64,000 bases of DNA. Origin: Candidatus Woesearchaeota archaeon (lineage in GTDB: Archaea; Nanobdellota; Nanobdellia; SCGC-AAA011-G17; PNOQ01). The notes beneath the pieces were generated by a model. It had not been told where the DNA came from and searched no databases. It saw nothing but the letters and a program-made list of their open reading frames with translations. Both the position numbers and the translations under genes were made by a program. Within the stretch, counting starts at the first letter, position 1, and the number at the start of each line of letters is the position of its first letter. The DNA lies in contig JABHMJ010000022.1 in assembly GCA_018693795.1 (NCBI GenBank), forward strand, positions 146 to 64,145. The letters are read 5' to 3'. Positions 8,569 to 59,922 of this stretch are shown here, piece by piece.

Positions 8569-9612
8569 TTAGAATTCAGTTAATTTCTTTGAATAATTTA
8601 CAATTGAAGATTTCCCAGGAACTTCAATAACGTCTAACATGTGATTTTTCTTTAATTCATCTATTTTTCTGTGGAATGTTCTATAAGAAAACTTATCTTC
8701 TAACATTGAATGTAATTCTTTTACAGTTTTTCCAGAATTTTGTTTTATTAAATCTAAAATTGTTTGTTCATCATCTCCGAAGTCTAGAGAATTTTTAATT
8801 TTGAAACTTTCCAATTTTGTTAATGCTTTGTGTGCGTGATCAATTAATATTTTTCTTGAAGCTCTTGCCTCTGCAGAATTTCCAGATTCACGAAGTAAAA
8901 ATAATCCAGAACGTATATCTCCCACTTGTATTGTTTTATTTATTACTGCTTGCATGGCATCTTGATCCCAAACATTTGGAACAAAAGCATATTTTACTCT
9001 TTCTTTCATAATTCCTGCAGTTTCTTCAGCATTGTATTCATTAAACTCTAAAAGTTCTGGCATCAATCTTGATTTTACTCTATCATCTAATTGGGTTAAC
9101 CATTCTTTATTATTTGCAATCAAGATTAATGATTTTTTTAGTAAATCTTCGCAGAATGAATATAGTATGTCTACTTCTCTTACTTTATCAATTTCATCTA
9201 AGAATAAAACTACTGTTCCTTTGTTTAATTCTTTTGCAGCTATGTCCATTAATTCATCTGTTCTTTTATTTTGGGTCCATTTGTATCCAATTTGATTACA
9301 AATTTCTAATAATATTTTATAGCTTGAATCTTTTTTCCAACAGTTTATGTATATTGCTTTGACATCTCCTGTTTTTTCTTCTAATTCTCTTTTTACAAAT
9401 AATGCAGCTAAAGTTTTTCCTATTCCCGGTGCACCTTGTATGAATAAATTTCTTCCAGTTTTATTTTGAAGTAATGGTGCAATACATTCTGCGATAAATT
9501 GTTGTTGATTTTCTCTGAACGGAATTTGTTTTGGAACGTAATCATAATCTAACGCAATTTCATCTAAGAATAAGCTTTCATTGTCGTGTAAAATATTATC
9601 GAATAAACCCAT
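8569..9612 (-). CDS. cdc6: ORC1-type DNA replication protein Cdc6/Orc1
   Basis: AAA+ Walker A (GAPGIGKT), Walker B (VLFLDEIDK), sensor motifs, and a C-terminal winged-helix. Confidence 0.9.
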   Translation of the reverse strand: MGLFDNILHDNESLFLDEIALDYDYVPKQIPFRENQQQFIAECIAPLLQNKTGRNLFIQGAPGIGKTLAALFVKRELEEKTGDVKAIYINCWKKDSSYKILLEICNQIGYKWTQNKRTDELMDIAAKELNKGTVVLFLDEIDKVREVDILYSFCEDLLKKSLILIANNKEWLTQLDDRVKSRLMPELLEFNEYNAEETAGIMKERVKYAFVPNVWDQDAMQAVINKTIQVGDIRSGLFLLRESGNSAEARASRKILIDHAHKALTKLESFKIKNSLDFGDDEQTILDLIKQNSGKTVKELHSMLEDKFSYRTFHRKIDELKKNHMLDVIEVPGKSSIVNYSKKLTEF

Positions 9613-9647
9613 AAAAATGATAAAAAGAAAGAAAGATATAAAACTTT

Positions 9648-10001
9648 CTAAAGTTCTTTAAGACCTTCATCTGCATTAGTTACGAATCTAAAGCCTACTC
9701 CAGACTTCATTAAGGCAGTGACTAAGGCCATATGTTCTTTTCCTGTGCCTGAAACGAAATTAACTGCAATTTCATCTTTTACTTTTTCTTTTATAATTCC
9801 AGTGATTTCATCTCTTAGTTCTTCCTCTGAAGCTGAAGAATTTACAACTATTAATTCAGTATTTTCTGCTGCTGTAAATTTTTCTTTTCCGAAATCATTT
9901 GTTAGTAAATAGATTTTATCCCAGCTTTCTGCGTTGATTAATCCAGTTACTTGTCCCCAAGTTCCTTTTCCTGTTGATAGGAATGCTATTAAATCTGTCA
10001 T
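9648..10001 (-). CDS. hypothetical protein, possibly nucleotide-binding alpha/beta fold
   Basis: 117 aa; 35 bp upstream of cdc6 on the same strand; the GTGK motif is glycine-rich-loop-like. Confidence 0.4.
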   Translation of the reverse strand: MTDLIAFLSTGKGTWGQVTGLINAESWDKIYLLTNDFGKEKFTAAENTELIVVNSSASEEELRDEITGIIKEKVKDEIAVNFVSGTGKEHMALVTALMKSGVGFRFVTNADEGLKEL

Positions 10002-10376
10002 TTTAAGTTTGATTTTCTTTAGTTGTATTTAAGTTTTGTTGTTTTGGAGCTTGCCAGCTTGCCAAACATGCGGGTGAGATATATAAACATTTTTTCTCAT
10101 AATTAGTATACGTCATGGAGGTGATGTTTAATGGTTAAATACTTACATTGGGAAGATTTTGTTGAGGAAGAATTGGAGATGAAGTTTTGGAAGTTAATAC
10201 ATAATAGCGCGATATGCCACATGAAAATATGAAAATGGGGGAATATAACTATTATGAGAAAGAATGTATAATCCGGCTAGAAGAGGAGGGAGACATAGAT
10301 CCTTATGACGCTGGGTTCATGCATGGGTTTTTAGAAGCATAATAAGGTTTAAAAAACCTAAAATTTAACTTTTTTT

Positions 10377-20218: not shown

Positions 20219-20253
20219 AAAGGTTTTTAATGCTTATTTTTTGTTGTATTTTT

Positions 20254-20934
20254 ATGGAAAGTAAAGAAATCAATGGTTTAAAAACAATATTTATTCCTGC
20301 AAAGGCTAAAAATATTGATGTAGTTCCTGTTTTGAAGAAGTTAAAATTAGATGTAAAAAGAATTGGATTAATTTCTGCAGTACAATATATTGATTATTTA
20401 GATGATGCTAAAGTATTTCTTGAAAGTAAAGGTTTTGAAGTTTTTATTGCTGGTCAAATGGTCGGTTGCAACTCTTCTAACGCTATAAAGATAAAAGATA
20501 AAGTAGATGCATATGTTTTTATTGGAAGTGGCGAGTTTCATCCATTAGAATTAGTTAATTATTCTGGAATTGATGAAATATATTTAGCTAATCCTGTTTC
20601 TTGCAATATTACTAAATTTGATAAGAAAGAATTAGAAAAATTAGAAAAGAAAAAGATTGGTAAAATAAAGAAATATCTAACTGTAAATAAAATAGGAATT
20701 TTAGTTTCTGTCAAACCTGGGCAAAATGCTTTGAAAGCTGCTTTGAAATTTGCAGAGAACTGTGGAAAAGAAGCTTATGTTTTTATGGCAGATGAAATTG
20801 ACATTAATAGATTAGAAGACTTTAATGATATAAAAATGTGGGTGAATACTTCTTGTCCTAGATTAGAAGGTAACAATATTATTTCATTAAAAGATATAGT
20901 TGGAAGTAAATTAGTTGATTATCATACTTATTAA
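20254..20934 (+). CDS. dph2: diphthamide synthesis radical-SAM-like enzyme Dph2 (short form)
   Basis: Conserved Cys motifs (MVGCNSS, NTSCPRLEG) and a GSGEFHPL region. The start is moved to the second ATG because a TATA element lies at 20217-20231. Confidence 0.55.
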   Translation: MESKEINGLKTIFIPAKAKNIDVVPVLKKLKLDVKRIGLISAVQYIDYLDDAKVFLESKGFEVFIAGQMVGCNSSNAIKIKDKVDAYVFIGSGEFHPLELVNYSGIDEIYLANPVSCNITKFDKKELEKLEKKKIGKIKKYLTVNKIGILVSVKPGQNALKAALKFAENCGKEAYVFMADEIDINRLEDFNDIKMWVNTSCPRLEGNNIISLKDIVGSKLVDYHTY

Positions 20935-30030: not shown

Positions 30031-31284
30031 TTATAAAGGTTTTGAATCCTGTTTTTTCTTTTTCTTTTTCTTTGGTTTTTTGAATTTAAACATCGAAATT
30101 GTGTAATTTAGTGGATTTTTGAATTTTCTAACTACATTTTCTTCAGGTAAAATCCCTATATCTGCATAATATGCTTTGTTTTCATAATTTGGAGGAGGAA
30201 CTTTTTTAGAATTAATTTTATGCCAATTCAATTGTGCAATTATGTATCCTTCTTTTAATGGATTTTCTAAAATGTTATTCCATTCCTTTACTCTTCTCTC
30301 TATTTCTTCTGGGTTCCATCCAATACATTTTAAGAAATTAATTAATATGAATAAAAATCTCTTCTTTCCGTCTTGTAATCCAGATAATCCAGATTTTATG
30401 CAAGGAGGAAAATAATCTTCTGGTATTGCTTCTGTAATTTCTTCAAAATCTGTTTTTCTTTTTTCAGTTAGTTCTTCTGTTGATTCTTTTTTTATTGAAT
30501 TTCTTGAATACCAATCTAAAGCTTGTGTTATTAAGGAAGTTGCTTCTCCATCAATGAAATTAGAACTTTCTAGAAATCTAATTTCTGTTTTTACATTTTC
30601 TGGTTTTGCCCTTTCTTTATCAAATGTTAATACTTCTTCAGGATTTATTGGGAGACTAGCTAAGCCTGATTTTTCATGTAAAGAATAAGGTGCCCTAAAC
30701 ATATGTCTATTAGAAATTAAAACTGTATCAATCTCTATTTTGTTCCTCATTTGTTCCCCATATTTTTCTATTAGTGCAGGAGTAATCATTTCTGTTAAAT
30801 ATTCTGCAATTATTTTTGGTCCTTCTGGGAATAAATTTATTATCTCTATCTCGTTTACTTTCGACGGAAATGTTTTGAAAGGAATTGCAATGTGGAATCC
30901 TTTGTTTCCGCTAAATTTTACTGACATATTTTTTACATCGTGAAACTTCATTGCTTCAATTAAATAATGAGATATTTTTTTTGAATCTTCTAAATCTGGA
31001 GAATCTATATCTAAAACAAAATCCCACCCTCTTCTTAAACTATCTAGATCTTTCTTTTTCATTCCTGGTTTTAATTCTAAAGGATTAGACCAATGTTCTT
31101 CAGAAATATGAAAAGAAGTTGCTCCCCTTTTTACTAATTCCACTATATCATTTTCAAATTGTATTATATCTGGACGTTTTCCAAATTTCCCTAAACCATG
31201 CATAACAGAAATCTCTCTTTTTTGAGAATTAAATGCTATTTCTGTTTTTATTTCATTTTTTGAATAATAAGAAATTGGGTCCAT
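30031..31284 (-). CDS. priS: single-polypeptide DNA primase: PriS catalytic domain fused to PriL-CTD-like helical domain
   Basis: AEP motifs DIDSPD (DxD) and FSGNKGFHI (SGxRG-like), followed by RAPYSLH. The C-terminal ~120 aa are helical (FPPCIKSGL...), analogous to the fused primases described in Nanoarchaeum-like lineages. Confidence 0.7.
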   Translation of the reverse strand: MDPISYYSKNEIKTEIAFNSQKREISVMHGLGKFGKRPDIIQFENDIVELVKRGATSFHISEEHWSNPLELKPGMKKKDLDSLRRGWDFVLDIDSPDLEDSKKISHYLIEAMKFHDVKNMSVKFSGNKGFHIAIPFKTFPSKVNEIEIINLFPEGPKIIAEYLTEMITPALIEKYGEQMRNKIEIDTVLISNRHMFRAPYSLHEKSGLASLPINPEEVLTFDKERAKPENVKTEIRFLESSNFIDGEATSLITQALDWYSRNSIKKESTEELTEKRKTDFEEITEAIPEDYFPPCIKSGLSGLQDGKKRFLFILINFLKCIGWNPEEIERRVKEWNNILENPLKEGYIIAQLNWHKINSKKVPPPNYENKAYYADIGILPEENVVRKFKNPLNYTISMFKFKKPKKKKKKKQDSKPL

Positions 31285-46885: not shown

Positions 46886-48319
46886 ATGAAACAAACAAAA
46901 TTTACAAAAATCATAACATTATTCGCAATTTTCTTAATCTTATTAAATACTGTTTCTGCGTTAAAAATTTCAACTAGTGAAATAAATGATGTAGACCAAG
47001 GGGATAATGTTTATTTCGACGTAGAAATTGGATTATCTAGGATAGACATAATTCAATTGGTAAATGATGATATTTTTATTAGACATGCAAAATTAACAAT
47101 AACTGGTCCAAACGGATTTTATGAAACTTGTTTTGTAAAAGATGGACAATTAGTTGACTGTGATTTAGATCTTTCTGTTAAAGAGGTTATTTCTCAAAAT
47201 AAAGATCAAATTACTTATCAATTTGTTTGGAACACTCTAAGTGGGATTGAAAAAGGAACATATAATGTTAATGGGGAATTATACTTAACAAAAACTCTTG
47301 ATGCTCAATATTCTTATTGCGATATATTAGTTGGCAGGTATCAAGCATTATCTAGTTTTGATCATGTTTTACTGTATGATTCAACTTTAGATTTAAATAA
47401 TGATAATATAGTTAATTTATCGGATTTGGTTATTTTCCAATCAAACCCTATGTACAGACAAGATGGGGAATTATTTGGAAGATTTCAAGGATTTTTTATG
47501 TTGAATAAAGAATATAGGGAGTATAATTCAATGCTGGATTTGAACGAAGATGGCATCATTAACTTATCCGATTTAGTATTATTATCTCAAGAATTGGGAA
47601 ATGATAAATTAGATTTAAATGGAGATGGGATAGAAAATTTATCAGATATTGTTATACTTGCACAATATTTTGAAACAGAAAATTTAGAGTTAGATTGGAA
47701 TAATGATGGAATTGTTAATCTTTCAGATATCATATTAATAACACAATATATGGAAAATGGCAATTTAGAACTTGATATGAATGGAGATGACATTTTCAAC
47801 TTAAGTGACATCGTTATAATTTCAGAAATATATTCTAATTCAAAAATTTCAACTGAGTATGAAAGATCTTTAGACTTGGATGGAAATGGAATTGTTAATC
47901 TTTCAGATATTATTATACTTGCACAAAACATTGAAGGCTCATTTGAATTAGAAGATCTAAATGAAGATGGAATACTTGATTTAACAGAAACCATCATTGC
48001 TGCCAATGGAATAAATAATGAGGAATGGTGTGCAATGCAATTAGAAAAGATAGATGGTCTTGTTACAATATTTAATTCAGAAGAACAATCATTTGAGATA
48101 ACTTCAAGATCTTCAAATGGAGGATCTAGAAATCATGATGATGACAACTCTGCTGGAGATGACTACCAAGATTATGAATCTGGAGATGAATATGAAGGAA
48201 CATATACTCCATTTACAGAAACAAACTATTTGATGGATAATTTGTGGTCTTTAGTATTTTATCTGATTGCCATTATTGTTTCATTTAGTGGAATAGTGAT
48301 AGTTTCAAAAAAACTTTAA
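46886..48319 (+). CDS. secreted cell-surface protein with about eight dockerin-like Ca-binding repeats and C-terminal TM anchor
   Basis: Signal peptide, then repeated DLNxDGxxNLSDxVxLxQ motifs (dockerin type I-like), an acidic/Ser-rich linker, a TM helix and an SKKL tail. Confidence 0.6.
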   Translation: MKQTKFTKIITLFAIFLILLNTVSALKISTSEINDVDQGDNVYFDVEIGLSRIDIIQLVNDDIFIRHAKLTITGPNGFYETCFVKDGQLVDCDLDLSVKEVISQNKDQITYQFVWNTLSGIEKGTYNVNGELYLTKTLDAQYSYCDILVGRYQALSSFDHVLLYDSTLDLNNDNIVNLSDLVIFQSNPMYRQDGELFGRFQGFFMLNKEYREYNSMLDLNEDGIINLSDLVLLSQELGNDKLDLNGDGIENLSDIVILAQYFETENLELDWNNDGIVNLSDIILITQYMENGNLELDMNGDDIFNLSDIVIISEIYSNSKISTEYERSLDLDGNGIVNLSDIIILAQNIEGSFELEDLNEDGILDLTETIIAANGINNEEWCAMQLEKIDGLVTIFNSEEQSFEITSRSSNGGSRNHDDDNSAGDDYQDYESGDEYEGTYTPFTETNYLMDNLWSLVFYLIAIIVSFSGIVIVSKKL

Positions 48320-48325
48320 TTTTTT

Positions 48326-48640
48326 TTATTTTTCACAAATTACTTGCATTGGAAACGATTCAGTAAAATCGCAAATTAAAGATTCGCATTTTAAGCAAGG
48401 ATCGCCCTGATAACAAATTGGTTCATCTTCAAAGTTATAACAATTAAAACTTTCTGGACAATTATTCATATAATCACATTTTATTGTTTCTGGACATTCT
48501 TCAAAATTACAATTATTATTTGAATCTCTTGAAACAAATGTTCCATCTTGACACATCTTTGCTTCTTCGGTACAAGCTAAAGGTTCACCCATACAAGAAG
48601 AAATCAATACTGTTGCTAAAATTAATAATAATATTTTCAT
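48326..48640 (-). CDS. Cys-rich secreted lipoprotein-like protein (104 aa, about 17 Cys)
   Basis: Lipobox-like LISSC followed by CxxC/CNFEEC-type Cys spacing. Confidence 0.45.
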   Translation of the reverse strand: MKILLLILATVLISSCMGEPLACTEEAKMCQDGTFVSRDSNNNCNFEECPETIKCDYMNNCPESFNCYNFEDEPICYQGDPCLKCESLICDFTESFPMQVICEK

Positions 48641-49167
48641 TTTTCTATTTTTTTATAGCCAATCCACATTATTATGATTAGCTCAACTAATATTACTAAG
48701 GCTCTCCATATCTTGCTTAAATCTGAGAATGCACGTATTGTTCCATAAAATAAAACAATTAAACCTGCAAACATTAAACCTGCACCCATATAATCTGTTT
48801 TAAAATACAACCCTAGAATTACTAATATTAGGCCAATTGGGGCTATGATAAAAAATAAGTTTCTATTGTATTTTTCTTTTGCATCTTGATATTCGTTATT
48901 ACAAAAATCACATTCTTTGAATTCATTACATCCTTGATCATTTGTTTCTAGAATTGGATTTCCATTTTCTTCTAAACAACTTTGATAATCTGGACCATAG
49001 TCAAAATTACATTCTTCAATTGGTTTTACATTTGTTGGGAAAAAACGTTGTCCACTACAAAAATCATCGTAATCTGGAGAAGAATAAATTGCATCAACAA
49101 ATAACCCTACAAATAGTGGGAGAAGTATTGCTATCCCCAAAATCATGGCTAATTTTTTTGGATCCAT
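48637..49167 (-). CDS. Cys-rich membrane protein (paralogous Cys domain plus 2 C-terminal TM)
   Basis: N-terminal TM; extracellular Cys-rich domain sharing an ECNF motif with the adjacent gene; 4-nt overlap coupling. Confidence 0.45.
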   Translation of the reverse strand: MDPKKLAMILGIAILLPLFVGLFVDAIYSSPDYDDFCSGQRFFPTNVKPIEECNFDYGPDYQSCLEENGNPILETNDQGCNEFKECDFCNNEYQDAKEKYNRNLFFIIAPIGLILVILGLYFKTDYMGAGLMFAGLIVLFYGTIRAFSDLSKIWRALVILVELIIIMWIGYKKIEK

Positions 49168-49303
49168 AATTTAATGTTTATTTTTTTATTTATATAATTT
49201 GGGGTGTGGCCCAAATTGGGCCAAGAAAATATTAAACGGAGGTAATCCTTTATTGTGTGTGACCCTTTTTAAATAAAATGAAGATAAAATATGGAAGTGA
49301 GTT

Positions 49304-49531
49304 CTATATATTTAGCAAGATAGAATAATTATCTGGAGCGAATTCTGCTACAAATCTCTCTGCATTTGCTTTTGCTTGTTTCAATAATTCAGAATTATTA
49401 TCCGTTATTGTTTCAGTAACAAGATACTGCATTCCACCAAAAAGTTTTATATCTTCTATAAACTCTTTTCTTGAAATTGTATGCATCCCGGATTCTGCTT
49501 TTAGAAAATTTAATTTATATTCTATTGTCAT
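49304..49531 (-). CDS. hypothetical protein (75 aa)
   Basis: ORF only. Confidence 0.3.
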   Translation of the reverse strand: MTIEYKLNFLKAESGMHTISRKEFIEDIKLFGGMQYLVTETITDNNSELLKQAKANAERFVAEFAPDNYSILLNI

Positions 49532-49567
49532 AATCTTGGTATAGATAATTTATTTATAATTCTTATG

Positions 49568-50281
49568 TTACTTCTTTCTGAAAGATTTAGAAATTGAATC
49601 ATTCCAAAATTCAGGCAACCCTGCTTTCATTAAACCTTCAAATTCATCGGATATTACATAAAAATGTTCTTTTTTGTTTTTTATTTCAGAAAAAGAATTT
49701 CCAACTTTAATAAACATGTCTTGCAAAGCTTTTCTTTCGAATCTCGTTTGAAGTAAAGATGGTTCTTTGAATAATAAAATATCACAAAGTCTTAAAACAT
49801 TTAGATCTAGCATTGCAGAGTTTTGGGTTATGAATATCAATGAAAGATTTTTATGTCTTGCTATTGCCAATAGCTCTGCTAAATCTTTATTTGATTGTTT
49901 CATGGATGATCTTGAAGAAAACGAAATCCCCGCCTCATCAATTAATACTAAAGAATTATTTGGTATTTCTGATATGCTTTCTACATTTTGTACCCAATAA
50001 GGTATTTTTGAATTATTGAATCCAATTACAAAAATATTTTTATCCAATATTGCTGCAGTTTCAACTAATTTCATTCCTAACGCAGTTTTTCCTGCGCCCC
50101 TTCTTCCGACTATTAGCATAATTAAAGAGTGATCCCTAAATTGTGTCATGAATCCTTCAAAATCCCCATTAACAATTTGATTTACTTCAAAATTTGATAA
50201 AGCAGAATTAAACCTATCTTTTTGTGTTATTTTATGTTTCTCTTCTTTTTGTTTTTTATATTTTTTAATTGGATTGAACAT
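49568..50281 (-). CDS. P-loop NTPase (AAA+/IstB-DnaC-like minimal ATPase), unknown function
   Basis: Walker A VGRRGAGKT, Walker B LVLIDEAG, and sensor-like ITQN. Confidence 0.55.
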   Translation of the reverse strand: MFNPIKKYKKQKEEKHKITQKDRFNSALSNFEVNQIVNGDFEGFMTQFRDHSLIMLIVGRRGAGKTALGMKLVETAAILDKNIFVIGFNNSKIPYWVQNVESISEIPNNSLVLIDEAGISFSSRSSMKQSNKDLAELLAIARHKNLSLIFITQNSAMLDLNVLRLCDILLFKEPSLLQTRFERKALQDMFIKVGNSFSEIKNKKEHFYVISDEFEGLMKAGLPEFWNDSISKSFRKK

Positions 50282-50323
50282 TAAGGTATTTGTAAAAAAG
50301 AAATATAAAAGTATTTTGTAAGT

Positions 50324-50647
50324 CTATAAGTCTATTTTCTTAGCATACTCGCCGATTACTGGTATGTATTTTTTCTCACCAGATAATGCATACGTCCAGT
50401 TGTATACCCATGCAACAAATACTAAAACTCTTAACCCTAAAGCAATTACCCACCCTAGGATTGGAATCCATCCAAGAATAGTTAATATTATCGAAGACAA
50501 TACTGCGAAGAGGAATATCACAAGACTTTGCTTTGCATAGTGCATTACATACTTATCTTTCTTCCATAACAATAATGCAGTAATAAATCCAAATATACTA
50601 AAAAAAGTTGTTATAAATGCATTAGTCCTTGATTTCTTTCTAATCAT
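50324..50647 (-). CDS. small membrane protein (DUF4870-like)
   Basis: 2-3 TM helices with a YAKQS motif. Confidence 0.35.
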   Translation of the reverse strand: MIRKKSRTNAFITTFFSIFGFITALLLWKKDKYVMHYAKQSLVIFLFAVLSSIILTILGWIPILGWVIALGLRVLVFVAWVYNWTYALSGEKKYIPVIGEYAKKIDL

Positions 50648-50698
50648 TATTAGAATTCCATTTTTATTTTATTTAAATGTTTTGAAAAAAGAAAAAAA

Positions 50699-51352
50699 TT
50701 AAGAGGCTAATTCGGCCTCAATTATTTGTTCAAAAACACTAAATGGTTGCGCACCACTCACTAAAATTCCATTAACAAATGTTGCTGGAGTTCCACGTAC
50801 ACCTGCTGCAGAACCATCTTTTATGTCATTTTGAATTTCATCATAGTATTTTCCAGAATCTAAACATACATCAAACTCATTTTGGTTTAAACCTAAATTT
50901 GCTGCGTATTGTTTAAATGAGGTTATTCCTCCAGTTACACCAGATTCAAATAACATATTGTGCATTTCATAATATTTCTCTTGATCTCCAGCACACTCTG
51001 CTGATTCAGCTGCCTTTTGAGCGTTTGTATGTAAACTTAGTGGAAAGTCCCTATAGACGAATTTTACTTTTCCAGTTTCAACATATTTTTCTTTTATTTG
51101 TTGTAATGCATCAGTATAAAATCTTCCACAAAATGGGCATTCATAATCACTGAATTCAATTATTGTTACCGGGGCATTTGCGTCTCCTAAAAAATCATCA
51201 TCATCTGCAGAAACCTGTATCCGCGTAGGTTGTCCTGTTGCTTGTCCTGTTGGAGGACTATTTTGTAAATCAGTTTTTGAATTAGAAATGAAACTAATTA
51301 TCAATACAATAGCCAAAACTCCTATAATTATTTTTAATCCTTTGTTTTCCAT
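50699..51352 (-). CDS. DsbA-like thiol:disulfide oxidoreductase (thioredoxin fold, membrane-anchored)
   Basis: N-terminal TM, CPFC active site and a helical insert. Confidence 0.75.
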   Translation of the reverse strand: MENKGLKIIIGVLAIVLIISFISNSKTDLQNSPPTGQATGQPTRIQVSADDDDFLGDANAPVTIIEFSDYECPFCGRFYTDALQQIKEKYVETGKVKFVYRDFPLSLHTNAQKAAESAECAGDQEKYYEMHNMLFESGVTGGITSFKQYAANLGLNQNEFDVCLDSGKYYDEIQNDIKDGSAAGVRGTPATFVNGILVSGAQPFSVFEQIIEAELAS

Positions 51353-51421
51353 ATTTCATCAACTCCTATTTATTTTTTTTAAAATTTTATTTAAAAAGAT
51401 TAAGGAGGATAAATCATTTAT

Positions 51422-53593
51422 CTATAATTTTTTCTTTCTTAATGCTAAAGAATTTAATATTACACTTACTGAAGACATTGCCATTGCTCCTCCGGCAATC
51501 ATTGGGTTTAACAACCATCCGGTAAATGAATAAAACACACCGGCTGCAACTGGAATTCCAAGTGTATTATAAAATAGTGCCCAAAACATGTTTTGTTTTA
51601 TTTTTGACATTGTTAATTTACTTAATCTTATTGCCTTTCCAACATCTAGCAAATTATTTCTCATTAATACAATGTTTCCTGTTTCCATTGCTACATCGGT
51701 TCCAGAACCCATTGCAATACCAATATCTGCTTGTGCTAAGGCTGGAGCATCATTTATTCCATCTCCCACCATTGCAACTTTTCCGTATTTTTGTAATTTT
51801 TTTACATAATTTGATTTATCTTCAGGGAGAACTTCAGCAAAAACATTTTTTATGCCTGCTTTTTTTGCAATTGCATTTGCAGTTCTTTTGTTATCTCCAG
51901 TAATCATGTAAACTTTTATACCCAATTTTTCCAAATATTTTATTGCAGTTGGAGATGTTTTCTTTATTGTATCTGCTACTGCGACCATGCCAATTAGTTT
52001 TTTTCCTTCAGCCAAAAACATTACAGTTTTTCCTTGTTCTTCTAAAGTCTCAAATTCATTCGAAATAATTTTTATTTTCAAATCTTTCATTAATTTTTGA
52101 TTTCCAAAATTGTATGTTTTTTTACCAATGTTTGCTTTAATTCCATGCCCAGGAATTGCATTGAAATTTGAAACTTTTTTTAGAATAATTTTGCTTTGCT
52201 TTGCTTTTTCAACTATCGCATCTGCCAATGGGTGTTCTGAATTTTTTTCTATGCTTCCTGCAATCATCAATAGTTCTTTTTCTGTTTTGTCTTTTGAAAT
52301 TATATCCGTCACTTCTGGAATTCCAGTTGTTATTGTTCCCGTTTTATCAAAAATTACATATTTTATTTTATGTGCAGTTTCTAAAGCATCTCCGCCTTTT
52401 ATCAAAATACCTTCCTTTGCTCCCTTACCCGTTCCAACCATTATTGCAGTTGGTGTTGCTAATCCTAAGGCACACGGACAGGCTATTACTAAAACCGCTA
52501 TGGCCGCAGTTAATGCAAACGTTAGGTCCGCATTAAACATTAATTTCCATGAAATGAATGTTATTATTGCAACTAATATTACTATTGGCACAAAATAAGA
52601 AGAAACCATATCTGCAAACCTTTGAATTGGTGCTTTTTTTCCTTGTGCTTCTTCTATTAATTTTATTATATGGGCAAGAGTTGTATTTTTTCCTATTTTT
52701 GTTGCTTTAAATTTGAATGAACCTTGTTTATTTATCGTCCCACCAATTACTCCATCTCCTTTCTTTTTTTCTATTGGCATACTCTCTCCAGTCACCATAG
52801 ATTCATTTATACTTGAAAATCCTTCTGTGATTATTCCATCTACTGGAATTTTTGCACCTGGTTTTATTAAGATTATATCTCCCAATTCTATCTCTTTTAA
52901 TGGAATTACTATTTCTTTTCCTTTTCTAATTACTATTGCTTTCTTTGGGGCCAGTTCCATTAATTTTTTTATTGCTCCAGAGGTTTTTGATTTTGCTAAT
53001 GCTTCTAAATATTTTCCCAATAAAACCAATGTGATTAAGACTGCAGATGCTTCAAAGTATTGTGCGTGACTTGAAGTAAATAATACTGCATATACACTAA
53101 AAAAGTATGCGGCACTTGTACCAATTGCAATTAGACTATCCATATTTGCACTTTTGTTTTTTAATGCTGCCCAAGATCCTTTGTAGAATTGGGCCCCAGC
53201 AATAAATTGTACTGGAGTCGCTAAGATCCACAATATATATTCTTCAAAAGGCATGGATATTCCTAACCACATAAATACCATTCCAATTACAAAGGTTGGG
53301 ATTGCAAATAATGAACTAAAGAAGAATAAGTTTCTTAGTTTTTTAATTTCTTTTTTTTGAGATTGAAGATCAATCCCATCTTTAAGTTGGGATGCACCAT
53401 ACCCTCTTTTTTTAATTATGCCTATTAAATTTTCTTCTTTTATTTTTTTTGGATCGTATTCTATTGTTGCTTTTTCAGTTGTTAAATTAACATTTGCGTT
53501 GATAACTCCTTTCTCTTTTTTTAATCCTTTTTCTATTACAGTAACGCAACTAGCACAATGCATTCCCTTAATTTGTAATTCTGTTTTTTTCAT
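51422..53593 (-). CDS. copA: copper-translocating P1B-type ATPase
   Basis: N-terminal HMA (GMHCASC), TM CPC motif, DKTGT phosphorylation site, and GDGxND. Confidence 0.95.
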   Translation of the reverse strand: MKKTELQIKGMHCASCVTVIEKGLKKEKGVINANVNLTTEKATIEYDPKKIKEENLIGIIKKRGYGASQLKDGIDLQSQKKEIKKLRNLFFFSSLFAIPTFVIGMVFMWLGISMPFEEYILWILATPVQFIAGAQFYKGSWAALKNKSANMDSLIAIGTSAAYFFSVYAVLFTSSHAQYFEASAVLITLVLLGKYLEALAKSKTSGAIKKLMELAPKKAIVIRKGKEIVIPLKEIELGDIILIKPGAKIPVDGIITEGFSSINESMVTGESMPIEKKKGDGVIGGTINKQGSFKFKATKIGKNTTLAHIIKLIEEAQGKKAPIQRFADMVSSYFVPIVILVAIITFISWKLMFNADLTFALTAAIAVLVIACPCALGLATPTAIMVGTGKGAKEGILIKGGDALETAHKIKYVIFDKTGTITTGIPEVTDIISKDKTEKELLMIAGSIEKNSEHPLADAIVEKAKQSKIILKKVSNFNAIPGHGIKANIGKKTYNFGNQKLMKDLKIKIISNEFETLEEQGKTVMFLAEGKKLIGMVAVADTIKKTSPTAIKYLEKLGIKVYMITGDNKRTANAIAKKAGIKNVFAEVLPEDKSNYVKKLQKYGKVAMVGDGINDAPALAQADIGIAMGSGTDVAMETGNIVLMRNNLLDVGKAIRLSKLTMSKIKQNMFWALFYNTLGIPVAAGVFYSFTGWLLNPMIAGGAMAMSSVSVILNSLALRKKKL

Positions 53594-53628
53594 TGTTATT
53601 TATGTCCTTCTGTTATTTATATCTTTAT

Positions 53629-54084
53629 TCAAAATCTGAAAGCCCCATTTGCTAATTCAGATTCACTTATTAAAATATGGTCTCCTTCAATTTTATTTTC
53701 TAAAAATGATGGCCAACATCCTCCTCCACGGTTTTCTGTACCAATAGAATCTATACTAAATACTCTTCCACAATTATTGCATACCATGTCTGTACCCTCT
53801 TGTCTATACCCCTTATATCCACCACAAACATCACAAGCATCGAAGGCCGATCTTATTTCCCCATTAGATCCTTTAACTAAAAAATATTTTACTTCTTTCC
53901 CATTTACATCAAATGAATAGTGTTTTGCAGTTTCTGAAATTTCAGAAATCGGTATTTTTATGAAAGCATCATTTGAAATTATATTTCCTGTTGGGTTTCC
54001 CTTTTGAGTAGGATTACTAGTAGTGCACCCACTCACCAAAATAATTGTTAATAAAATTATTCCATATATTATTTTATTGTTCAT
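53629..54084 (-). CDS. DUF2318-like Cys-rich lipoprotein (metal-binding, permease-associated)
   Basis: Start set at MNNK with lipobox VSGC. Contains FDACDVCGGY...CNNCG motifs. Confidence 0.5.
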   Translation of the reverse strand: MNNKIIYGIILLTIILVSGCTTSNPTQKGNPTGNIISNDAFIKIPISEISETAKHYSFDVNGKEVKYFLVKGSNGEIRSAFDACDVCGGYKGYRQEGTDMVCNNCGRVFSIDSIGTENRGGGCWPSFLENKIEGDHILISESELANGAFRF

Positions 54085-54085
54085 C

Positions 54086-55507
54086 TTATCCTCCACACCC
54101 GCATCCCCCGCCAGATGCCCCGCATGAGCCACCTTGAGGAACTTGAATATCATTTATTTTATTTGAATCTAAATTTGTTAAATCATCTACCACTACAAAA
54201 GTCCCTGGGATCATTCCCATCCAACAACTCCAAGAGATTACCCCCGTAGTCGTAGGCGTAAATTCTATTGTTTGTTCTCCAGGGGTTACTTTAAAATTTA
54301 AATTGTATTTTGGAACTTGGATTGCATTGTTACATCCATTTATTTCTTTTCCATCTATTATCCATTTTACTGGAATTCCTTTTTGTAAAACAAATTTATC
54401 TGGAGACCAACCATATCTATTCACTTCCATTCTAATCTCTTGATAATTCCCATTTAGGGTTGCTAATTCATTTGAAGGCAAATTTTCATAATTTGTTGAT
54501 TTTACTGTTGCGCCAACAATTAATGAATCATAGTCATACCCTGAACCCGTTAGAGATAGCCCCCGATTAATCATGACTATTCCAAGAATCATGACCACTA
54601 CTGCAGAGACTTTTAGGATTTTTTTTGTTGATGATGCACTAATTATCGATGTCATTATCCCAAAACCCAGTAAAACTGGTAGGGTTCCTAATCCAAATGC
54701 AGTCAAACTTAATGCTCCTTGCAACATACTTCCTGTGCCTGCCGCATAAATGTACATAGCTTGCAACGGACCGCATGCGATCATTAGACTATTCAATAAT
54801 CCAATTTTTAATGGACTTCTTGATTTTTGAGTTTCTTTCGAAGCAAATTTATTTAAGAAACTTGGAGATTTAATTCTTATTTTTCTTAACCAAGGAAATA
54901 TATTTAACATGTTCAATCCAAAAATTACTAGGAAAAGTCCTGCTAATATTGCAGCATATCCTCTTAAATTTGGGGTGAACGCAATAAACGATCCAAACAG
55001 TCCAAATATTCCCCCAATTATTGCATACCCTGTTGTTTTTCCTAAACCATATTCTAGGTGTGCACGAGTTTTCGATTTTGCTTTTGTAGCATAAGAGATT
55101 ACAAATCCCCCACACATGCCAATACAATGAAATCCAGTTAATAACCCAAGTACAAATAACAAAGCTAAAGAGGTTTCCTGAGATAAATCTGGGAAAAAAT
55201 CAAATCCCCCTGTATTTTCTAAAATTAGGTATGCACCAATCAATAAGAATGCTATTGATATTGCAATTGTAAGATATAACCTACTTTTTTTTGGTTTTAT
55301 TTCACTTGGAGAGTATCCAGATTCATCAATTATATTAAATATTTTTTCTTTAGATATTTTTTCTTCATCGAATCTAATGTTTAATTTACTTGACTCATAA
55401 TTTGCTTTTACTTCTTGAATCCCTTCTTTTTTTTCTAATGCTCTTTCTAATATTTTTTCACAGCTCCCGCAAGTCATCCCAGAAATATATATTATTTTTT
55501 CAGTCAT
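54086..55507 (-). CDS. fusion protein: N-terminal HMA domain, polytopic permease (DsbD_2/TauE-like, HCIGMCGG motif), C-terminal cupredoxin-like domain with Cys/Gly tail
   Basis: GMTCGSC HMA motif; about 8 TM helices; C-terminal beta-rich domain (TTGVISWSCWMGMIPG) ending SCGASGGGCGCGG. Confidence 0.6.
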   Translation of the reverse strand: MTEKIIYISGMTCGSCEKILERALEKKEGIQEVKANYESSKLNIRFDEEKISKEKIFNIIDESGYSPSEIKPKKSRLYLTIAISIAFLLIGAYLILENTGGFDFFPDLSQETSLALLFVLGLLTGFHCIGMCGGFVISYATKAKSKTRAHLEYGLGKTTGYAIIGGIFGLFGSFIAFTPNLRGYAAILAGLFLVIFGLNMLNIFPWLRKIRIKSPSFLNKFASKETQKSRSPLKIGLLNSLMIACGPLQAMYIYAAGTGSMLQGALSLTAFGLGTLPVLLGFGIMTSIISASSTKKILKVSAVVVMILGIVMINRGLSLTGSGYDYDSLIVGATVKSTNYENLPSNELATLNGNYQEIRMEVNRYGWSPDKFVLQKGIPVKWIIDGKEINGCNNAIQVPKYNLNFKVTPGEQTIEFTPTTTGVISWSCWMGMIPGTFVVVDDLTNLDSNKINDIQVPQGGSCGASGGGCGCGG

Positions 55508-55707
55508 ATTTTATATCCCTCTGCCATTATTTTCTTTTTTATTTTATCCACCATATCATTAGATCCATCAAATTCAATAGAAACCCTTTCTTTTTCATGG
55601 TCTGGGGTTGCAGTTTTTACTCCAGAGATTTCTTCTAATTCTTCTTTCAAAAGTATTTCGCAACTTTTGCAATGCATGCCTTTTACTTTTATTTTTTCTA
55701 AAACCAT
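55504..55707 (-). CDS. copZ: copper chaperone CopZ (HMA domain)
   Basis: 67 aa with GMHCKSC. Confidence 0.85.
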   Translation of the reverse strand: MVLEKIKVKGMHCKSCEILLKEELEEISGVKTATPDHEKERVSIEFDGSNDMVDKIKKKIMAEGYKI

Positions 55708-55775
55708 TATCTATTTGTAGGTGAAACACCTTAAAAGGAATTGTATGAAACTAGTTTCATTTTATAAATAAATTG

Positions 55776-56234
55776 TTAATTATGTTTAAGAATTACTACG
55801 TTTGTCATTCCTCTTCGTTTTCTTTCTATCTTTCCTTTTCCTTCCAATCTATCTAAAATTCTTGTAATCTTAACTTTGTTCATGTTTGTTTTCTCTGTTA
55901 ATTCAGATTGAAATATTGTTCCTTCTGCATTTAATATTTCATTTAATAATATTTTTTCATCTTCTGAAAATTTACTTAAATCTAGTTCCTTGGATTTTTC
56001 TTTACTTTTCTCTTTTGCAAAGAAAATTAAATATAATCCAGTTAAAATAATTACAATCATTATTCCTAAACTTATATTTGTTTGAAATCTTATTGAAGTC
56101 CACATTGCACATTCAGACCCATGAGAGCAAGTAGTATTAACAATTTCAGTTAGAGCTTTGTTAAAAGCACTAATTATGAATCCGATTAATACAGCGATTC
56201 CAATTATTATATATCCAGTAGTTTTGTTTTTCAT
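55776..56234 (-). CDS. membrane-anchored winged-helix transcriptional regulator (paralog of 57051..57464)
   Basis: Two N-terminal TM helices flank a CSHGSEC loop; C-terminal wHTH (KVKITRILDRLEGKGKIERK). Confidence 0.55.
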   Translation of the reverse strand: MKNKTTGYIIIGIAVLIGFIISAFNKALTEIVNTTCSHGSECAMWTSIRFQTNISLGIMIVIILTGLYLIFFAKEKSKEKSKELDLSKFSEDEKILLNEILNAEGTIFQSELTEKTNMNKVKITRILDRLEGKGKIERKRRGMTNVVILKHN

Positions 56235-56383
56235 GGTTTTAATGCAAAATGGAGGGTATAAAAGATTTATGATTTGTTGATTTCAAAAATTTGTTTGTTT
56301 GTTTCAATAATTTTCAACTGGTTTCAATAAAATAGTTATCTGGTTTCACCCATTATACTGGATACATTTGGAGGAAAATAAAA

Positions 56384-56758
56384 ATGACAAATAAAAAATT
56401 AGGAATTTTTGCCATCGTGCTTGTGTCTCTAGTTGCTTTTGGAGGACTTGTATCTGCATATGGCAGGGGGATAGATAATCCAGAAAGAGGATTGTACCAT
56501 GAACAAATGGAAGAAATAATTGAAGAAGGAAACTATGAAGATTTAGTTAACTTTAGAAACGAAATAGGTTATGATGTTGCTCGAAGAGTTGTAGATGAAG
56601 AAAGCTTTCAACAACTAAAAGAAAGACATACATATATGGAAGAAAATGGAATTGAACCTGGTCAAGGTCAGAGATTAAAAGATGGATCTGGAAATAAGAT
56701 GGGCCAACGAATGGGACAAGAAAATTATAACCAAATGGGGGAATGCCCTTACCAATAA
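56384..56758 (+). CDS. secreted hypothetical protein (signal peptide)
   Basis: MTNKKLGIFAIVLVSLVAFGGLVSA signal, then an acidic and Gly/Gln-rich mature part. Confidence 0.4.
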   Translation: MTNKKLGIFAIVLVSLVAFGGLVSAYGRGIDNPERGLYHEQMEEIIEEGNYEDLVNFRNEIGYDVARRVVDEESFQQLKERHTYMEENGIEPGQGQRLKDGSGNKMGQRMGQENYNQMGECPYQ

Positions 56759-56794
56759 TTTTTTTTTCTTTTTTTTCATAACATTTAAAAGCAA

Positions 56795-57061
56795 ATGGAA
56801 TTCAATATTGATAATATGCCAATGGGACAAGTAATTAGGCCAATGGGACTTCACATACAGTATATGTGGGTATTTCAATTAATTATATTACTATTATTTT
56901 TCTTGATAATCTGGTGGGTGTTGAGGGGAAACAATAATTATGGATATAAATCTGATGATTCTGCAATTGATATTTTAAATAAGAGATTGGCTAGTGGCGA
57001 AATTACAAAAAAAGAATATGAAGAAATAAAAAGAGACATAAACACAAAAGATGGAGATTAA
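56795..57061 (+). CDS. membrane protein with C-terminal SHOCT domain
   Basis: TM helix plus RLASGEITKKEYEEIKRDI (SHOCT signature). Confidence 0.5.
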   Translation: MEFNIDNMPMGQVIRPMGLHIQYMWVFQLIILLLFFLIIWWVLRGNNNYGYKSDDSAIDILNKRLASGEITKKEYEEIKRDINTKDGD

Positions 57062-57464
57062 TAATAAAAAATTAATTATTGGATTCGGGTTGGTTTTTTT
57101 ATTAGGGGTTGCTTTCTCTATCGTAAATGGAGAGTATACCGACTCTACAAATGAACAATTGCCTTTGATTGTTTATGCAATTTCTTTTTTATCTGTAATT
57201 GTTGGGGCGTTCTTAGTCATAATGTTTCAAGCAAAAATAAATAAAATTCAACTAGAAAGAGTTTTGAAGATATTACATAGGGAAGAGAGGGTCATTGTAA
57301 AAATTCTTTTAGACAATAATAACTCAATTGAACAAAATAAATTAGTAGTGCTGTCTGGATTTAATAAGGTTCAAACGTTTAGAATTACTAGAAAACTTGA
57401 AGAAAGGGGAGTTATTGAAAAAAAACATTTAGGAAATACAAATCTCATTATTTTAAAAATTTAG
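57051..57464 (+). CDS. membrane-anchored winged-helix transcriptional regulator (paralog of 55776..56234)
   Basis: 2 TM helices plus wHTH (KVQTFRITRKLEERGVIEKK). Confidence 0.55.
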   Translation: MEINNKKLIIGFGLVFLLGVAFSIVNGEYTDSTNEQLPLIVYAISFLSVIVGAFLVIMFQAKINKIQLERVLKILHREERVIVKILLDNNNSIEQNKLVVLSGFNKVQTFRITRKLEERGVIEKKHLGNTNLIILKI

Positions 57465-57679
57465 TTTTTAGATAGCTCTATAAAATCGTGATATAATGCA
57501 AGAAAATCTATCTTCTTCCCCTTAGGTTCATATTTTTCATGAATTTCAATCATATATTGTATATTATTTTCATTTGGTAGAATCAAATTTGTCTCTTTAA
57601 AAATTTCAAATACTCTGTCTGGATCTTGTTGTTCTATTGCTTTATGATATTGTTCTTGAATTTCATCATTTAAACTCAT
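57461..57679 (-). CDS. hypothetical protein (72 aa)
   Basis: ORF only. Confidence 0.3.
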   Translation of the reverse strand: MSLNDEIQEQYHKAIEQQDPDRVFEIFKETNLILPNENNIQYMIEIHEKYEPKGKKIDFLALYHDFIELSKN

Positions 57680-57715
57680 TTAATTGTAATTAGAAAATAA
57701 TATAAAATCCTTTTG

Positions 57716-58159
57716 TTATGCCCTTGTAGCACTAAATAGTAGATCTCCTAAAGATTTTTTTTCTGTTTTTGGAGGGCCAAGTTTTCTTACTCCTGAAAGA
57801 GTTATTTTTTCTGTATTCGTGTCATAAGAAACAAAGACATGGCTGTGCCTTCCTTCTGAAAGATTTTCTGGTTTGATTGAATTGGGCACGTATCTTTTTT
57901 CTGAAGCATTTACAAAGAGCTGTTCTTGCATATCCCTTATGGTGCATCCCTCCTTTTCGAAAATTAGGTCTACATTCTGAAATCCGACAAGCACAGAGTT
58001 ATATTCATCCCAGAGGAAAGGACTTAGAAAATATCTTTTACCTGGTTGTTGAATTTCTTGATGATGATTATCTTTGAAATCTTTTATAGTTATTGCCGCG
58101 TAAATATCTGGCGTAAATATATAATCAATAATCCGCATATTTTCTCTAAAACTTATCAT
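57716..58159 (-). CDS. hypothetical protein (147 aa)
   Basis: ORF with conserved-looking His/Cys residues; no family recognized. Confidence 0.35.
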   Translation of the reverse strand: MISFRENMRIIDYIFTPDIYAAITIKDFKDNHHQEIQQPGKRYFLSPFLWDEYNSVLVGFQNVDLIFEKEGCTIRDMQEQLFVNASEKRYVPNSIKPENLSEGRHSHVFVSYDTNTEKITLSGVRKLGPPKTEKKSLGDLLFSATRA

Positions 58160-58206
58160 TTTCTTAGAATTTAGGAATTTACCACCATATAAAGGTTACT
58201 TTTAAT

Positions 58207-58920
58207 TTACACTTCAAAATTAGTTTCTTTTTCAGATTCTTTTTCATCAATTGTTAAAAATCTGGTTATCTTTCCTTTTCTTTTTGCGTGTATTCTTGCT
58301 TTTGCAAAATCATTTTTATATTCTTCCGGAACAATTATCTCATCTATCCCAATTGTATGTTCTATGAATGTTTTTTTGAAAGGCTCTTTAATATCAAAAG
58401 CATAATCTTCCAGTATTGATTTATCAGTTGTTATTAGAACACAATAATCTGCTTTTGGTTTTTTATCTCCTTTTCCAGGTTTTCCAGATTTGGGTGCCTT
58501 CTCTTTTATTTTTAATTTACCATATTCTGTTTCAAAAGATAGACTTAATGGATTTAATGGGAATTTTTCATGAAGTTCTAGAATTTGATGTTTTGTTAAT
58601 TCTTTGTTTACTATGTGTTTTTTTACTCCCATTGCATTTTTTATTTCTTCAAATTCAATTGGGGATTCTGCAGATAGATCTTTTGCTGCAAAGATTATTC
58701 CATTAACTTGTACTTTGGTTGTATCATCTTTTATTGTGTTTGCTAAGAATACGACCATCCCATTAGCATATTCTGGAGATGTTTTTATCTTAACTGCTTT
58801 CGCAGTGATAGTTATATCTATTAGTGCTTTATGTTTAAAAATTCCTTTTCCAAATTTAACAAATTGATTATGTACTTGTTCATCTATTTTATTTTCAAAT
58901 ATTTTTTTTATGAAATTCAT
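58207..58920 (-). CDS. hypothetical protein (237 aa)
   Basis: ORF only. Confidence 0.35.
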   Translation of the reverse strand: MNFIKKIFENKIDEQVHNQFVKFGKGIFKHKALIDITITAKAVKIKTSPEYANGMVVFLANTIKDDTTKVQVNGIIFAAKDLSAESPIEFEEIKNAMGVKKHIVNKELTKHQILELHEKFPLNPLSLSFETEYGKLKIKEKAPKSGKPGKGDKKPKADYCVLITTDKSILEDYAFDIKEPFKKTFIEHTIGIDEIIVPEEYKNDFAKARIHAKRKGKITRFLTIDEKESEKETNFEV

Positions 58921-58999
58921 GATTTTGATTTTATGTTGGTCATTTTTATATCTTCTGGTTTAGTAAATGATATAAATTGGGGTTTATTAGTGGATTTAT

Positions 59000-59072
59000 A
59001 GTCCTGTAGTGTAGTGGTCCAGCATAAGAGGTTCTGGGCCTTTTGACCCAGGTTCGAATCCTGGCAGGACTA
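59000..59072 (+). tRNA. tRNA-Gln (anticodon CUG)
   Basis: Acceptor AGTCCTG/CAGGACT, anticodon loop TTCTGGG, T-arm CCAGG-TTCGAAT-CCTGG. Confidence 0.75.
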
Positions 59073-59073
59073 T

Positions 59074-59871: not shown

Positions 59872-59922
59872 GTTAAAATTAATTCAATTAACCTTATAAA
59901 TCTTTATCGATTAATATATTAT

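Follow-up and report, generated by a model that had tools for sequence, protein, structure and literature searches.

A single-chain PriS-PriL(CTD) DNA primase lacking the [4Fe-4S] ligand set in a Woesearchaeota-type DPANN archaeon

We analyzed a 64,000-nucleotide (nt) stretch of DNA from a Candidatus Woesearchaeota archaeon (assembly GCA_018693795.1, contig JABHMJ010000022.1, positions 146 to 64,145), referred to here as the window, and found that its minus strand encodes, at 30031 to 31284, a DNA primase in which a PriS-type catalytic domain of the archaeo-eukaryotic primase (AEP) type and a helical domain related to PriL's C-terminal domain (CTD) are fused in one chain. Three of the four cysteines that hold the iron-sulfur (Fe-S) cluster of PriL are replaced in this chain. 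The gene very probably specifies a chromosomal, presumably replicative, single-chain and cluster-less primase of a Woesearchaeota-type DPANN archaeon. A wider proposition, which we favor with some reserve, is that the sole replicative primase of many such archaea, including GW2011_AR15, has repeatedly undergone complete loss of its [4Fe-4S] cluster, with a core of aromatic and hydrophobic residues in its place and the initiation function kept. The fusion was already known, and the cluster-less state appears to be new: cluster-less DPANN primases went unmentioned in the full-text portion of the literature that was searchable, most subscription journals lying outside its coverage, and an earlier report is possible.

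RESULTS

Loss of the Fe-S ligands from the PriL-type domain

The gene and those of its parts that bear on the cluster are the following.

30031..31284, minus strand: complete open reading frame (ORF) of the fused PriS-PriL(CTD) primase, 417 amino acids (aa) plus a TAA stop
30079..30405, minus strand: PriL-CTD-like helical domain, aa 294-402, without the Fe-S ligand set (PF04104, CTD profile and AlphaFold2 [AF2])
30400..30411, minus strand: FPPC motif, aligned to the FPPC of Pyrococcus abyssi PriL, with C295 as the relic of Fe-S ligand 1
30109..30195, minus strand: former ligand 2-4 segment PPNYENKAYYADIGILPEENVVRKFKNPL, in which Y367, L379 and V385 replace Cys (alignment)

When the 116 closest near-full-length homologues are aligned, the ligand columns show the spacing C-x72-C-x11-C-x5-C. 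This spacing is close to that of NEQ395, the fused primase of Nanoarchaeum equitans, whose successive ligands are 75, 12 and 8 residues apart. The window primase has C295, Y367, L379 and V385 in these columns and thus keeps one Cys of four; its whole chain contains two, C295 and C320. Where cluster-bearing homologues read LPPNCxNxxYYxDxxIC(x5)C(x3)KNPVNY, the window primase reads PPPNYENKAYYADIGILPEENVVRKFKNPLNY, the surroundings being otherwise conserved. Because ligands 2 to 4 are Tyr, Leu and Val, we infer that the protein would have no capacity for a [4Fe-4S] cluster. The initial annotation had stated that the four Fe-S cysteines are missing; the ligand set is indeed gone, but the loss concerns three of the four, and ligand 1 has been kept as a relic.

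The same 116 homologues comprise 55 with the full C-C-C-C pattern and 61 in which ligands 2, 3 and 4 are absent together, ligand 1 in the latter being C, D, E or S. Enlarging the set with 150 representatives of 50%-identity clusters gave 254 sequences, which were assigned as cluster-type (161), cluster-less (89) or intermediate (4); among the 150 representatives themselves, about 116 carry all four cysteines and about 30 (20%) do not. Ten of 57 parsed loci of species-representative genomes are cluster-less, including that of the closed genome of Archaeon GW2011_AR15 (CP010425.1). Read from these columns, ligand loss is all-or-none across the homologues. The replacements also follow a pattern in the 89 cluster-less sequences, ligand 2 being Tyr in 66 and Phe in 21, ligand 3 Leu, Lys or Asn, and ligand 4 mostly aliphatic, while ligand 1 is Ser, Cys, Glu, Asp, Ala or Thr. 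All of the next-best columns separating the two classes fall within aa 374-399, and hydrophobicity rises in several of them (I388 to F, K398 to M or L, A/S399 to F or Y). We infer that the cavity of the former cluster would be filled by the hydrophobic and aromatic side chains of Y367, F388 and F399.

A few relatives (P0129, P0167, P0212, P0225, P0266 and L060) carry two Cys together with His residues in the ligand 2-4 segment, as in PPNCGNDLYYEKSHDCQNDPFHKF; they may represent a Cys-to-His ligand swap or an intermediate of cluster loss. The cluster-less fused primase of AR15, a closed 1.16-Mb DPANN genome, reads FPES...PPPNYNTGYY, and its locus (L037, CP010425.1, chromosome positions 444876-454162) lies outside the SecY-to-S17e context described below. 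Many cluster-less sequences come from metagenome-assembled genomes (MAGs) of the marine water column. An adaptation to oxic, iron-poor sea water was considered as the cause of cluster loss and was not adopted, since AR15, a groundwater genome, lacks the ligands as well.

Homology of the C-terminal domain to PriL

A profile built from 24 CTD sequences matched P. abyssi PriL (PDB 9f26_B) with an E value of 4.9e-5 across all four ligand positions. The alignment consists of two stretches, one of them FPPCVKNALKGV, and takes in the FPPC(V/I)K motif and the PPNC...C...C..(R/K)NP segment. Because of this profile match, the C-terminal domain is identified as a true homologue of the PriL-CTD. Profiles were needed for this identification, as a single-sequence phmmer search of the primase against PDB sequences gave no match. 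The PriX family PF18689 was touched by just 1 of 86 relatives (E 0.009).

The CTD was also modelled alone, since the Foldseek matches of the full-length model were dominated by the AEP domain. The AF2 model of the isolated domain has a predicted local distance difference test score (pLDDT) of 88, and its three best PDB matches are all Sulfolobus PriX (probability 0.97-1.0, E 0.03-0.055). Among viral structures the best matches were baculovirus LEF-2 and a phage PriCT-1 domain. All structural matches of the CTD are accessory helical domains of primases.

Between former ligands 1 and 2 lies a conserved motif:

30349..30381, minus strand: GLQDGKKRFLF basic/aromatic motif, aligned to the GLQDSRKRF of PriX

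G302, D305, G306, K308 and F312 of this motif are invariant, R309 is at least 90% conserved, and its spacing from ligand 1 equals that of R301, R303 and F306 in NEQ395. By analogy, the motif is presumed to bind the initiating nucleotide or the primer's 5′ end.

Recurrent loss at one locus and selection on the cluster-less domain

Cluster-less and cluster-bearing primase genes are positional orthologues, occupying one and the same locus in the order SecY, EMC3-like, L34e, L14e, prefoldin, primase, S17e and Alba (cluster-bearing, L013, L016, L019-L021 and L028; cluster-less, L007, L009, L011, L012, L014, L017 and L029). Since the two classes share this locus, the data argue for ligand loss by in-situ evolution rather than by replacement with a foreign gene. 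In a neighbor-joining (NJ) tree the cluster-less sequences form several separate clades, some of them nested in or sister to cluster-bearing ones. With Fitch parsimony, NJ trees required at least 16 state changes in 100 of 100 bootstrap replicates, against about 73 for shuffled states, and the outcome was the same with the PriS domain alone, with the full length minus the ligand columns and with the CTD alone. These trees point to several independent losses; we keep to "several" because NJ error probably inflates the figure of at least 16. If the losses were independent, the recurrent change from Cys to Tyr or Phe at ligand 2 would be convergent. One sequence, P0048 (439 aa), has the ligand pattern C-Y-L-S-N seen in the P0024-P0026 clade, but NJ places it among the cluster-bearing P0097/P0113 group; domain recombination or a tree artefact may explain this position.

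Compared with 88-91%-identical orthologues from the query's own cluster-less clade (L007 and L029), the CTD shows a ratio of nonsynonymous to synonymous substitution rates (dN/dS) of about 0.02-0.04 and the PriS domain one of about 0.05-0.06; dS is near saturation, which makes these ratios rough, and the proportion of nonsynonymous differences (pN) is far below that of synonymous ones (pS). Thirteen residues (F292, G302, D305, G306, K308, F312, W335, Y347, Q351, N366, Y373, N390 and P391) are invariant in both classes. Because dN/dS is low and pN lies far below pS, these substitution patterns indicate that the cluster-less CTD is maintained by purifying selection and is not decaying.

The strength of this selection bears on a reading in which the fused CTD is decaying or purely structural and initiation depends on a separate PriL- or PriX-like protein whose gene lies elsewhere in the genome. 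We regard this as improbable. The CTD is constrained as strongly as the catalytic domain, and the putative nucleotide-binding motif is invariant. The genome portion examined amounts to 64 kb; in this window, an hmmsearch of six-frame ORFs of at least 50 aa with the N-terminal and CTD family profiles found no second PriS- or PriL-like ORF (next-best E at least 0.05), in line with the statement of the initial annotation that the window contains no separate priL. A precedent for two such modules exists in Sulfolobales, where cluster-less PriX and Fe-S PriL coexist (PMC10250227). Against the reading with a separate protein, surveyed DPANN Cluster 2 genomes hold only the fused gene (PMC7414124), N. 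equitans has no other AEP domain, and the two NEQ395 domains are inactive in trans and need their covalent link (PMC10250227).

Still less probable is a reading in which the cofactor was remodelled rather than lost, the CTD using non-canonical ligands such as C295 and C320 together with Tyr, His or Asp to bind an Fe-S cluster or some other metal. Both cysteines survive in the query's own sub-clade, and the Cys/His-mixed segments of P0129, P0212, P0225 and L060 show that ligand swapping occurs in the family. Such a site is nevertheless unlikely, because neither cysteine is conserved among cluster-less relatives: C295 is already Asp (FPPD) in relatives of about 70-73% identity and Glu, Ser, Ala or Thr in other cluster-less clades, and C320 gives way to Ser in 37 of the 89 cluster-less sequences, while cluster-bearing ones mostly have Ser or Asn there. 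There is no conserved set of substitute ligands, and ligand positions 3 and 4 are aliphatic (L379 and V385).

Catalytic domain, linker and tail

The remaining features of the gene are listed below.

30565..31284, minus strand: AEP (PriS-type) catalytic domain, aa 1-240 (PF01896; AF2 pLDDT mostly above 90)
30994..31020, minus strand: AEP motif I FVLDIDSPD, with metal-binding D92 and D94, invariant in 86 homologues
30889..30912, minus strand: AEP motif II SGNKGFHI, with S125, G126, G129 and H131 invariant in 86 homologues
30670..30738, minus strand: AEP motif III region IEIDTVLISNRHMFRAPYSLHEK, with invariant D186, R193, H194, R197 and S201
30406..30564, minus strand: linker, aa 241-293, with a helix at 249-275 and then a low-confidence loop, probably flexible (AF2)
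30034..30078, minus strand: Lys-rich C-terminal tail KPKKKKKKKQDSKPL, predicted disordered, with pLDDT below 50 at aa 407-412

The ORF begins with an ATG at 31284, 34 nt past the end of the upstream prefoldin gene, and ends with a TAA at 30033-30031, 28 nt ahead of the S17e start. Two Pfam families were matched above their cut-offs on this chain, PF01896 (DNA_primase_S) at aa 91-214 (E 5e-8, 33.9 bits against a cut-off of 26.8) and PF04104 (DNA_primase_lrg) at aa 243-328 (E 2.6e-5, 24.1 bits against 22.4), which bears out the single-chain PriS-PriL(CTD) fusion proposed in the initial annotation. Over 86 relatives, PF01896 was found in 86 and PF04104 in 56, with a best E value of 1.5e-10. The LigD_Prim-Pol family PF21686 barely reached its cut-off (27.5 against 27.4 bits), and the NCBIfam equivalog models of PriS and PriL gave weak matches far under theirs. 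The N-terminal domain (NTD) of PriL is absent from the chain.

Every motif quoted in the initial annotation is found in the translation (FVLDIDSPD at aa 89-97, SGNKGFHI at 125-132, RAPYSLH at 197-203 and FPPCIKSGLSGLQDGKKRFLFILINFLKCIGW at 292-324). Its two-domain layout also holds, but the boundary that it had placed at residue 300 does not: PriS ends at about aa 240 and the CTD starts at about aa 294, with a 50-aa linker between them. The AEP signature follows the expected order, FVLDID (D92 and D94), SGNKGFH (H131) and EIDTV (D186), invariant in 86 homologues, and the family profile places the motif III region against residues 313-362 of human PriS. Residues 1-294 contain no Cys, so the catalytic domain (aa 1-240) cannot have a Cys-based zinc motif; a structural zinc motif near the active site is reported for nearly all characterized AEP primases (PMC4434180).

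An AF2 model of the full-length protein, computed from an 86-sequence alignment, has a mean pLDDT of 88.3 and a predicted template modelling score (pTM) of 0.63, the latter fitting two rigid domains of uncertain mutual orientation. The initial annotation had proposed a profile comparison of the C-terminal part and an AlphaFold model as checks. The comparison, made with Pfam, NCBIfam and the CTD profile, returned the PriL similarity described above, and the model shows the N-terminal alpha/beta domain, the linker helix and the C-terminal helical domain. In residue terms, aa 1-240 are mixed alpha/beta, 249-275 form a long helix, 294-402 are all-helical, and 403-417 form the tail; pLDDT falls below 50 at aa 271-280, and no regular structure is seen up to about residue 293. 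In structure searches by Foldseek, this model matched Prim-PolC, the polymerase domain of LigD, and PriS of Pyrococcus, Sulfolobus, human and yeast with E values of 6e-8 to 1e-5. The linker is the least constrained part of the gene: dN/dS reaches 0.3-0.5 in comparison with the relatives L008 and L009, which are 70-72% identical.

Basic tails like that of the window primase also occur at the C-termini of its relatives, and the Lys-rich tail may serve in non-specific DNA binding or in partner binding. Two kinds of insertion were observed in or beside the catalytic domain of relatives. An insert of 90-100 aa with four CxxC motifs is present between AEP motifs II and III in 58 of the 254 family members (about 23%), cluster-bearing and cluster-less alike (among them P0086, P0105, P0107, P0112, P0119 and P0121). 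It looks like two zinc ribbons and would enter at query aa 175-183 (about nt 30736-30762), the window primase having no such insert. In five longer proteins of 727-1019 aa (P0126, P0142, P0175, P0238 and P0269), an intein with a LAGLIDADG homing-endonuclease domain lies in or adjoins the PriS domain (Pfam Intein_splicing and LAGLIDADG_3).

Host, neighborhood and distribution

The primase matches hypothetical protein HN953_01575 of a Candidatus Woesearchaeota archaeon MAG with 100% identity, in agreement with the DPANN affiliation given in the initial annotation, and the assignment of the host to DPANN is sound; the fusion itself is just one more marker for placement in DPANN Cluster 2. Exactly this sequence is carried, in a constant context, by 17 contigs of several independent metagenomes. 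Homologues at E values of at most 0.001 number 2949, and in a scan of GTDB species-representative genomes at least 578 stretches encode a relative, among the 600 matches listed. Nearly all of the best 80 loci carry the title Woesearchaeota, Nanoarchaeota/Nanoarchaeia or plain "archaeon"; nine titled Methanosarcinales and one titled Cloacimonadota are probably mislabelled bins.

Around the primase, the gene order is a Na+/H+ exchanger with TrkA_N, Alba, S17e, the primase, prefoldin, a KOW protein in the L14e position, L34e, an EMC3/YidC-like protein, SecY and L30. The window also encodes Orc1/Cdc6, L1, L10, L11, Spt5, FtsZ, RtcB, a class II aminoacyl-tRNA synthetase (assigned at class level only) and a ribosomal cluster running from L3 to SecY; the rest of it, at about 30% GC, has the character of an ordinary small-archaeon chromosome.

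This setting, together with the domain content, contradicts the least probable alternative, a repair-type or mobile-element prim-pol akin to LigD Pol, Prim-PolC, pTN2 or pRN1: it could draw on the borderline PF21686 score, on the best full-length Foldseek matches being Prim-PolC and LigD Pol domains and on an integrase at 61052-62215, but that integrase is 30 kb off, no ligase, Ku, helicase or integrase adjoins the gene, its position inside the ribosomal-protein/SecY cluster is conserved in many genomes, relatives are as widespread in species-representative genomes as stated above, a PriL-CTD foreign to LigD-type enzymes is present, and the chain is homologous to NEQ395-type fused primases, described as cellular replicative primases (PMC7414124 and PMC10250227).

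Other parts of the window drew our attention as well. An intergenic inverted repeat of 27 nt (10084-10110/10244-10270, 81% complementary) follows the Orc1/Cdc6 gene (8569-9612, minus strand), and GC skew changes sign at about 10-14 kb of the window; the region 8569-10376 may be a replication origin and lies about 20 kb away from the gene of the primase. The stretch 46886-62215 differs in character from the ribosomal cluster and may be a metal/redox-homeostasis island or an integrated element. Besides the integrase mentioned above, which is of the tyrosine type, this stretch carries genes for a dockerin/Excalibur-motif protein (46886-48319), a Zot-like ATPase (49568-50281), a DsbA-like thioredoxin (50699-51352), an HMA plus P-type ATPase (51422-53593) and an HMA-DsbD fusion (54086-55507).

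An ORF of the Dph2 family (diphthamide synthesis) lies at 20230-20934 on the plus strand (Pfam E 2.2e-36). It covers profile positions 59-271 of 302, so that its N-terminus may be miscalled or shortened, and retains the Cys motifs VGCNSS and NTSCPRL. Archaeal Dph2 is a [4Fe-4S] enzyme. That the host has abandoned Fe-S proteins altogether was considered and is unlikely because of this gene; judged from the retained motifs, the host probably still makes Fe-S clusters despite the loss in its primase.

DISCUSSION

Proposed mode of action

In the reading that we prefer, that of a cluster-less, single-chain replicative primase, the AEP domain (D92/D94, H131 and D186) would be tethered through a long helix and a flexible loop to the PriL-CTD-type helical domain. 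Judged by NEQ395 and PriS-PriL/PriX, the CTD would hold the initiating nucleotide and the template through its GxxDG[KR][KR]RF motif, the tether would bring the CTD to the active site, where the catalytic domain would then form the first dinucleotide, and the same tether would limit primer length. Work on NEQ395, PriSLX and human primase likewise leads us to expect the roles given here to the CTD and the tether, the status of the protein as the replicative and sole primase, and its Fe-S-free state.

Several points weigh against this reading. The PF04104 score of the single sequence is marginal (24.1 against 22.4 bits), and the Foldseek E values of the CTD are weak (PDB, 0.03-0.055), no PDB or viral match reaching 0.001. 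The filling of the cavity is read from sequence columns and not from model coordinates, C295 and C320 persist and could in principle join another metal site, and the metal content and the activity of the window primase are deduced from its sequence. Lastly, the 64 kb covered leave room in the genome for a separate PriL, PriX or second AEP.

Significance of a presumed cluster-less replicative primase

What the [4Fe-4S] cluster does in PriL is a matter of dispute, the cluster being viewed either as a redox switch acting by DNA charge transport or as a structural element. As late as 2025, papers still describe it as "highly conserved" among archaea and eukaryotes. In vitro, primer synthesis survives cluster loss in a Sulfolobus PriX-PriL fusion and in NEQ395 Cys mutants (PMC10250227). 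What has been missing so far is natural evidence from cellular replicative primases, and this locus and its relatives offer such evidence. If the wider proposition of repeated loss is correct, nature has repeated the experiment on the dispensability of the cluster many times in vivo, and the cluster-bearing and cluster-less orthologues at one locus would allow a direct test of redox switch versus structural element. Given biochemical confirmation, it would follow that chromosome replication in these lineages does not require the cluster. The repeated exchange of Cys for Tyr or Phe at ligand 2 would moreover suggest a design route to a stable cluster-free PriL-CTD.

Comparison with known systems

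Fused primases were first seen in N. equitans (Iyer 2005, as cited in PMC3914693) and were then extended to other nanosized archaea (Raymann 2014, PMC3914693). The fusion was later shown to be a synapomorphy uniting Undinarchaeota and DPANN Cluster 2 (Dombrowski 2020, PMC7414124). The best-studied member for this comparison is NEQ395, for which PMC10250227 reports an active, sequence-specific, monomeric PriS-PriL primase whose products depend on linker length. Models of that protein show a linker helix (251-280), a flexible loop (281-288) and a PriL domain (285-393). Its [4Fe-4S] ligands are C289, C364, C376 and C384, and single Cys-to-Ala mutants lose the cluster and keep activity (PMC10250227).

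The window primase shares with NEQ395 a single chain of about 400 aa composed of an AEP domain, a long linker helix with a flexible loop and a PriL-CTD, without a PriL-NTD. The three AEP motifs are common to both, D87, D89 and H125 of NEQ395 corresponding to D92, D94 and H131, and in both FPPC is followed by two basic residues and a Phe at 12, 14 and 17 residues (R301/R303/F306 and K307/R309/F312). The mapping rests on residue positions that the paper quotes and on relatives that bear the cluster, the NEQ395 sequence itself not being among the best 80 loci. The two proteins differ at the cluster, where C289, C364, C376 and C384 stand against C295, Y367, L379 and V385. The initial annotation had matched the gene to the Nanoarchaeum-type fused primases; this is correct for the type of fusion, but a plain match it is not, since NEQ395 carries a [4Fe-4S] cluster.

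A canonical PriS/PriL heterodimer is built differently, with a separate priL whose NTD docks onto PriS; the window primase has no PriL-NTD in its chain, and no other PriL-like ORF was found in the 64-kb window. The canonical PriL-CTD (PF04104; P. abyssi PriL 9f26 and p58C of yeast and human) resembles that of the window primase by profile homology (E 4.9e-5) and, as we would expect, in its initiation role; the window domain is distinguished by its covalent junction to PriS, by the missing PriL-NTD and by the absence of three of four ligands. LigD-type prim-pols of non-homologous end joining (PF21686) are associated with ligase and Ku and have no PriL-like domain, whereas the window gene stands beside ribosomal proteins, prefoldin and Alba and has a PriL-CTD. 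The monomeric or accessory primase helical domains of pRN1 ORF904, PolpTN2 of pTN2 and baculovirus LEF-2 are likewise without an Fe-S cluster; they belong to mobile elements and viruses, whereas the window gene is chromosomal and syntenic within a ribosomal cluster. According to Raymann et al. (PMC3914693), the fused primase of pTN2 has no sequence similarity to those of nanosized archaea.

The closest structural parallel is PriX of S. solfataricus (PDB 4wyh and 5of3), which is also a cluster-less, helical-bundle relative of the PriL-CTD, shares the GLxD(G/S)(R/K)KRF motif and is the top structural match of the CTD model (TM score to target 0.5-0.6, probability 0.97-1.0). PriX is a separate third subunit beside an Fe-S PriL in Sulfolobales, whereas the window CTD is fused to its catalytic domain, is the only PriL-like module seen in the 64-kb window, and is orthologous to, and descended from, cluster-bearing DPANN CTDs at the same locus.

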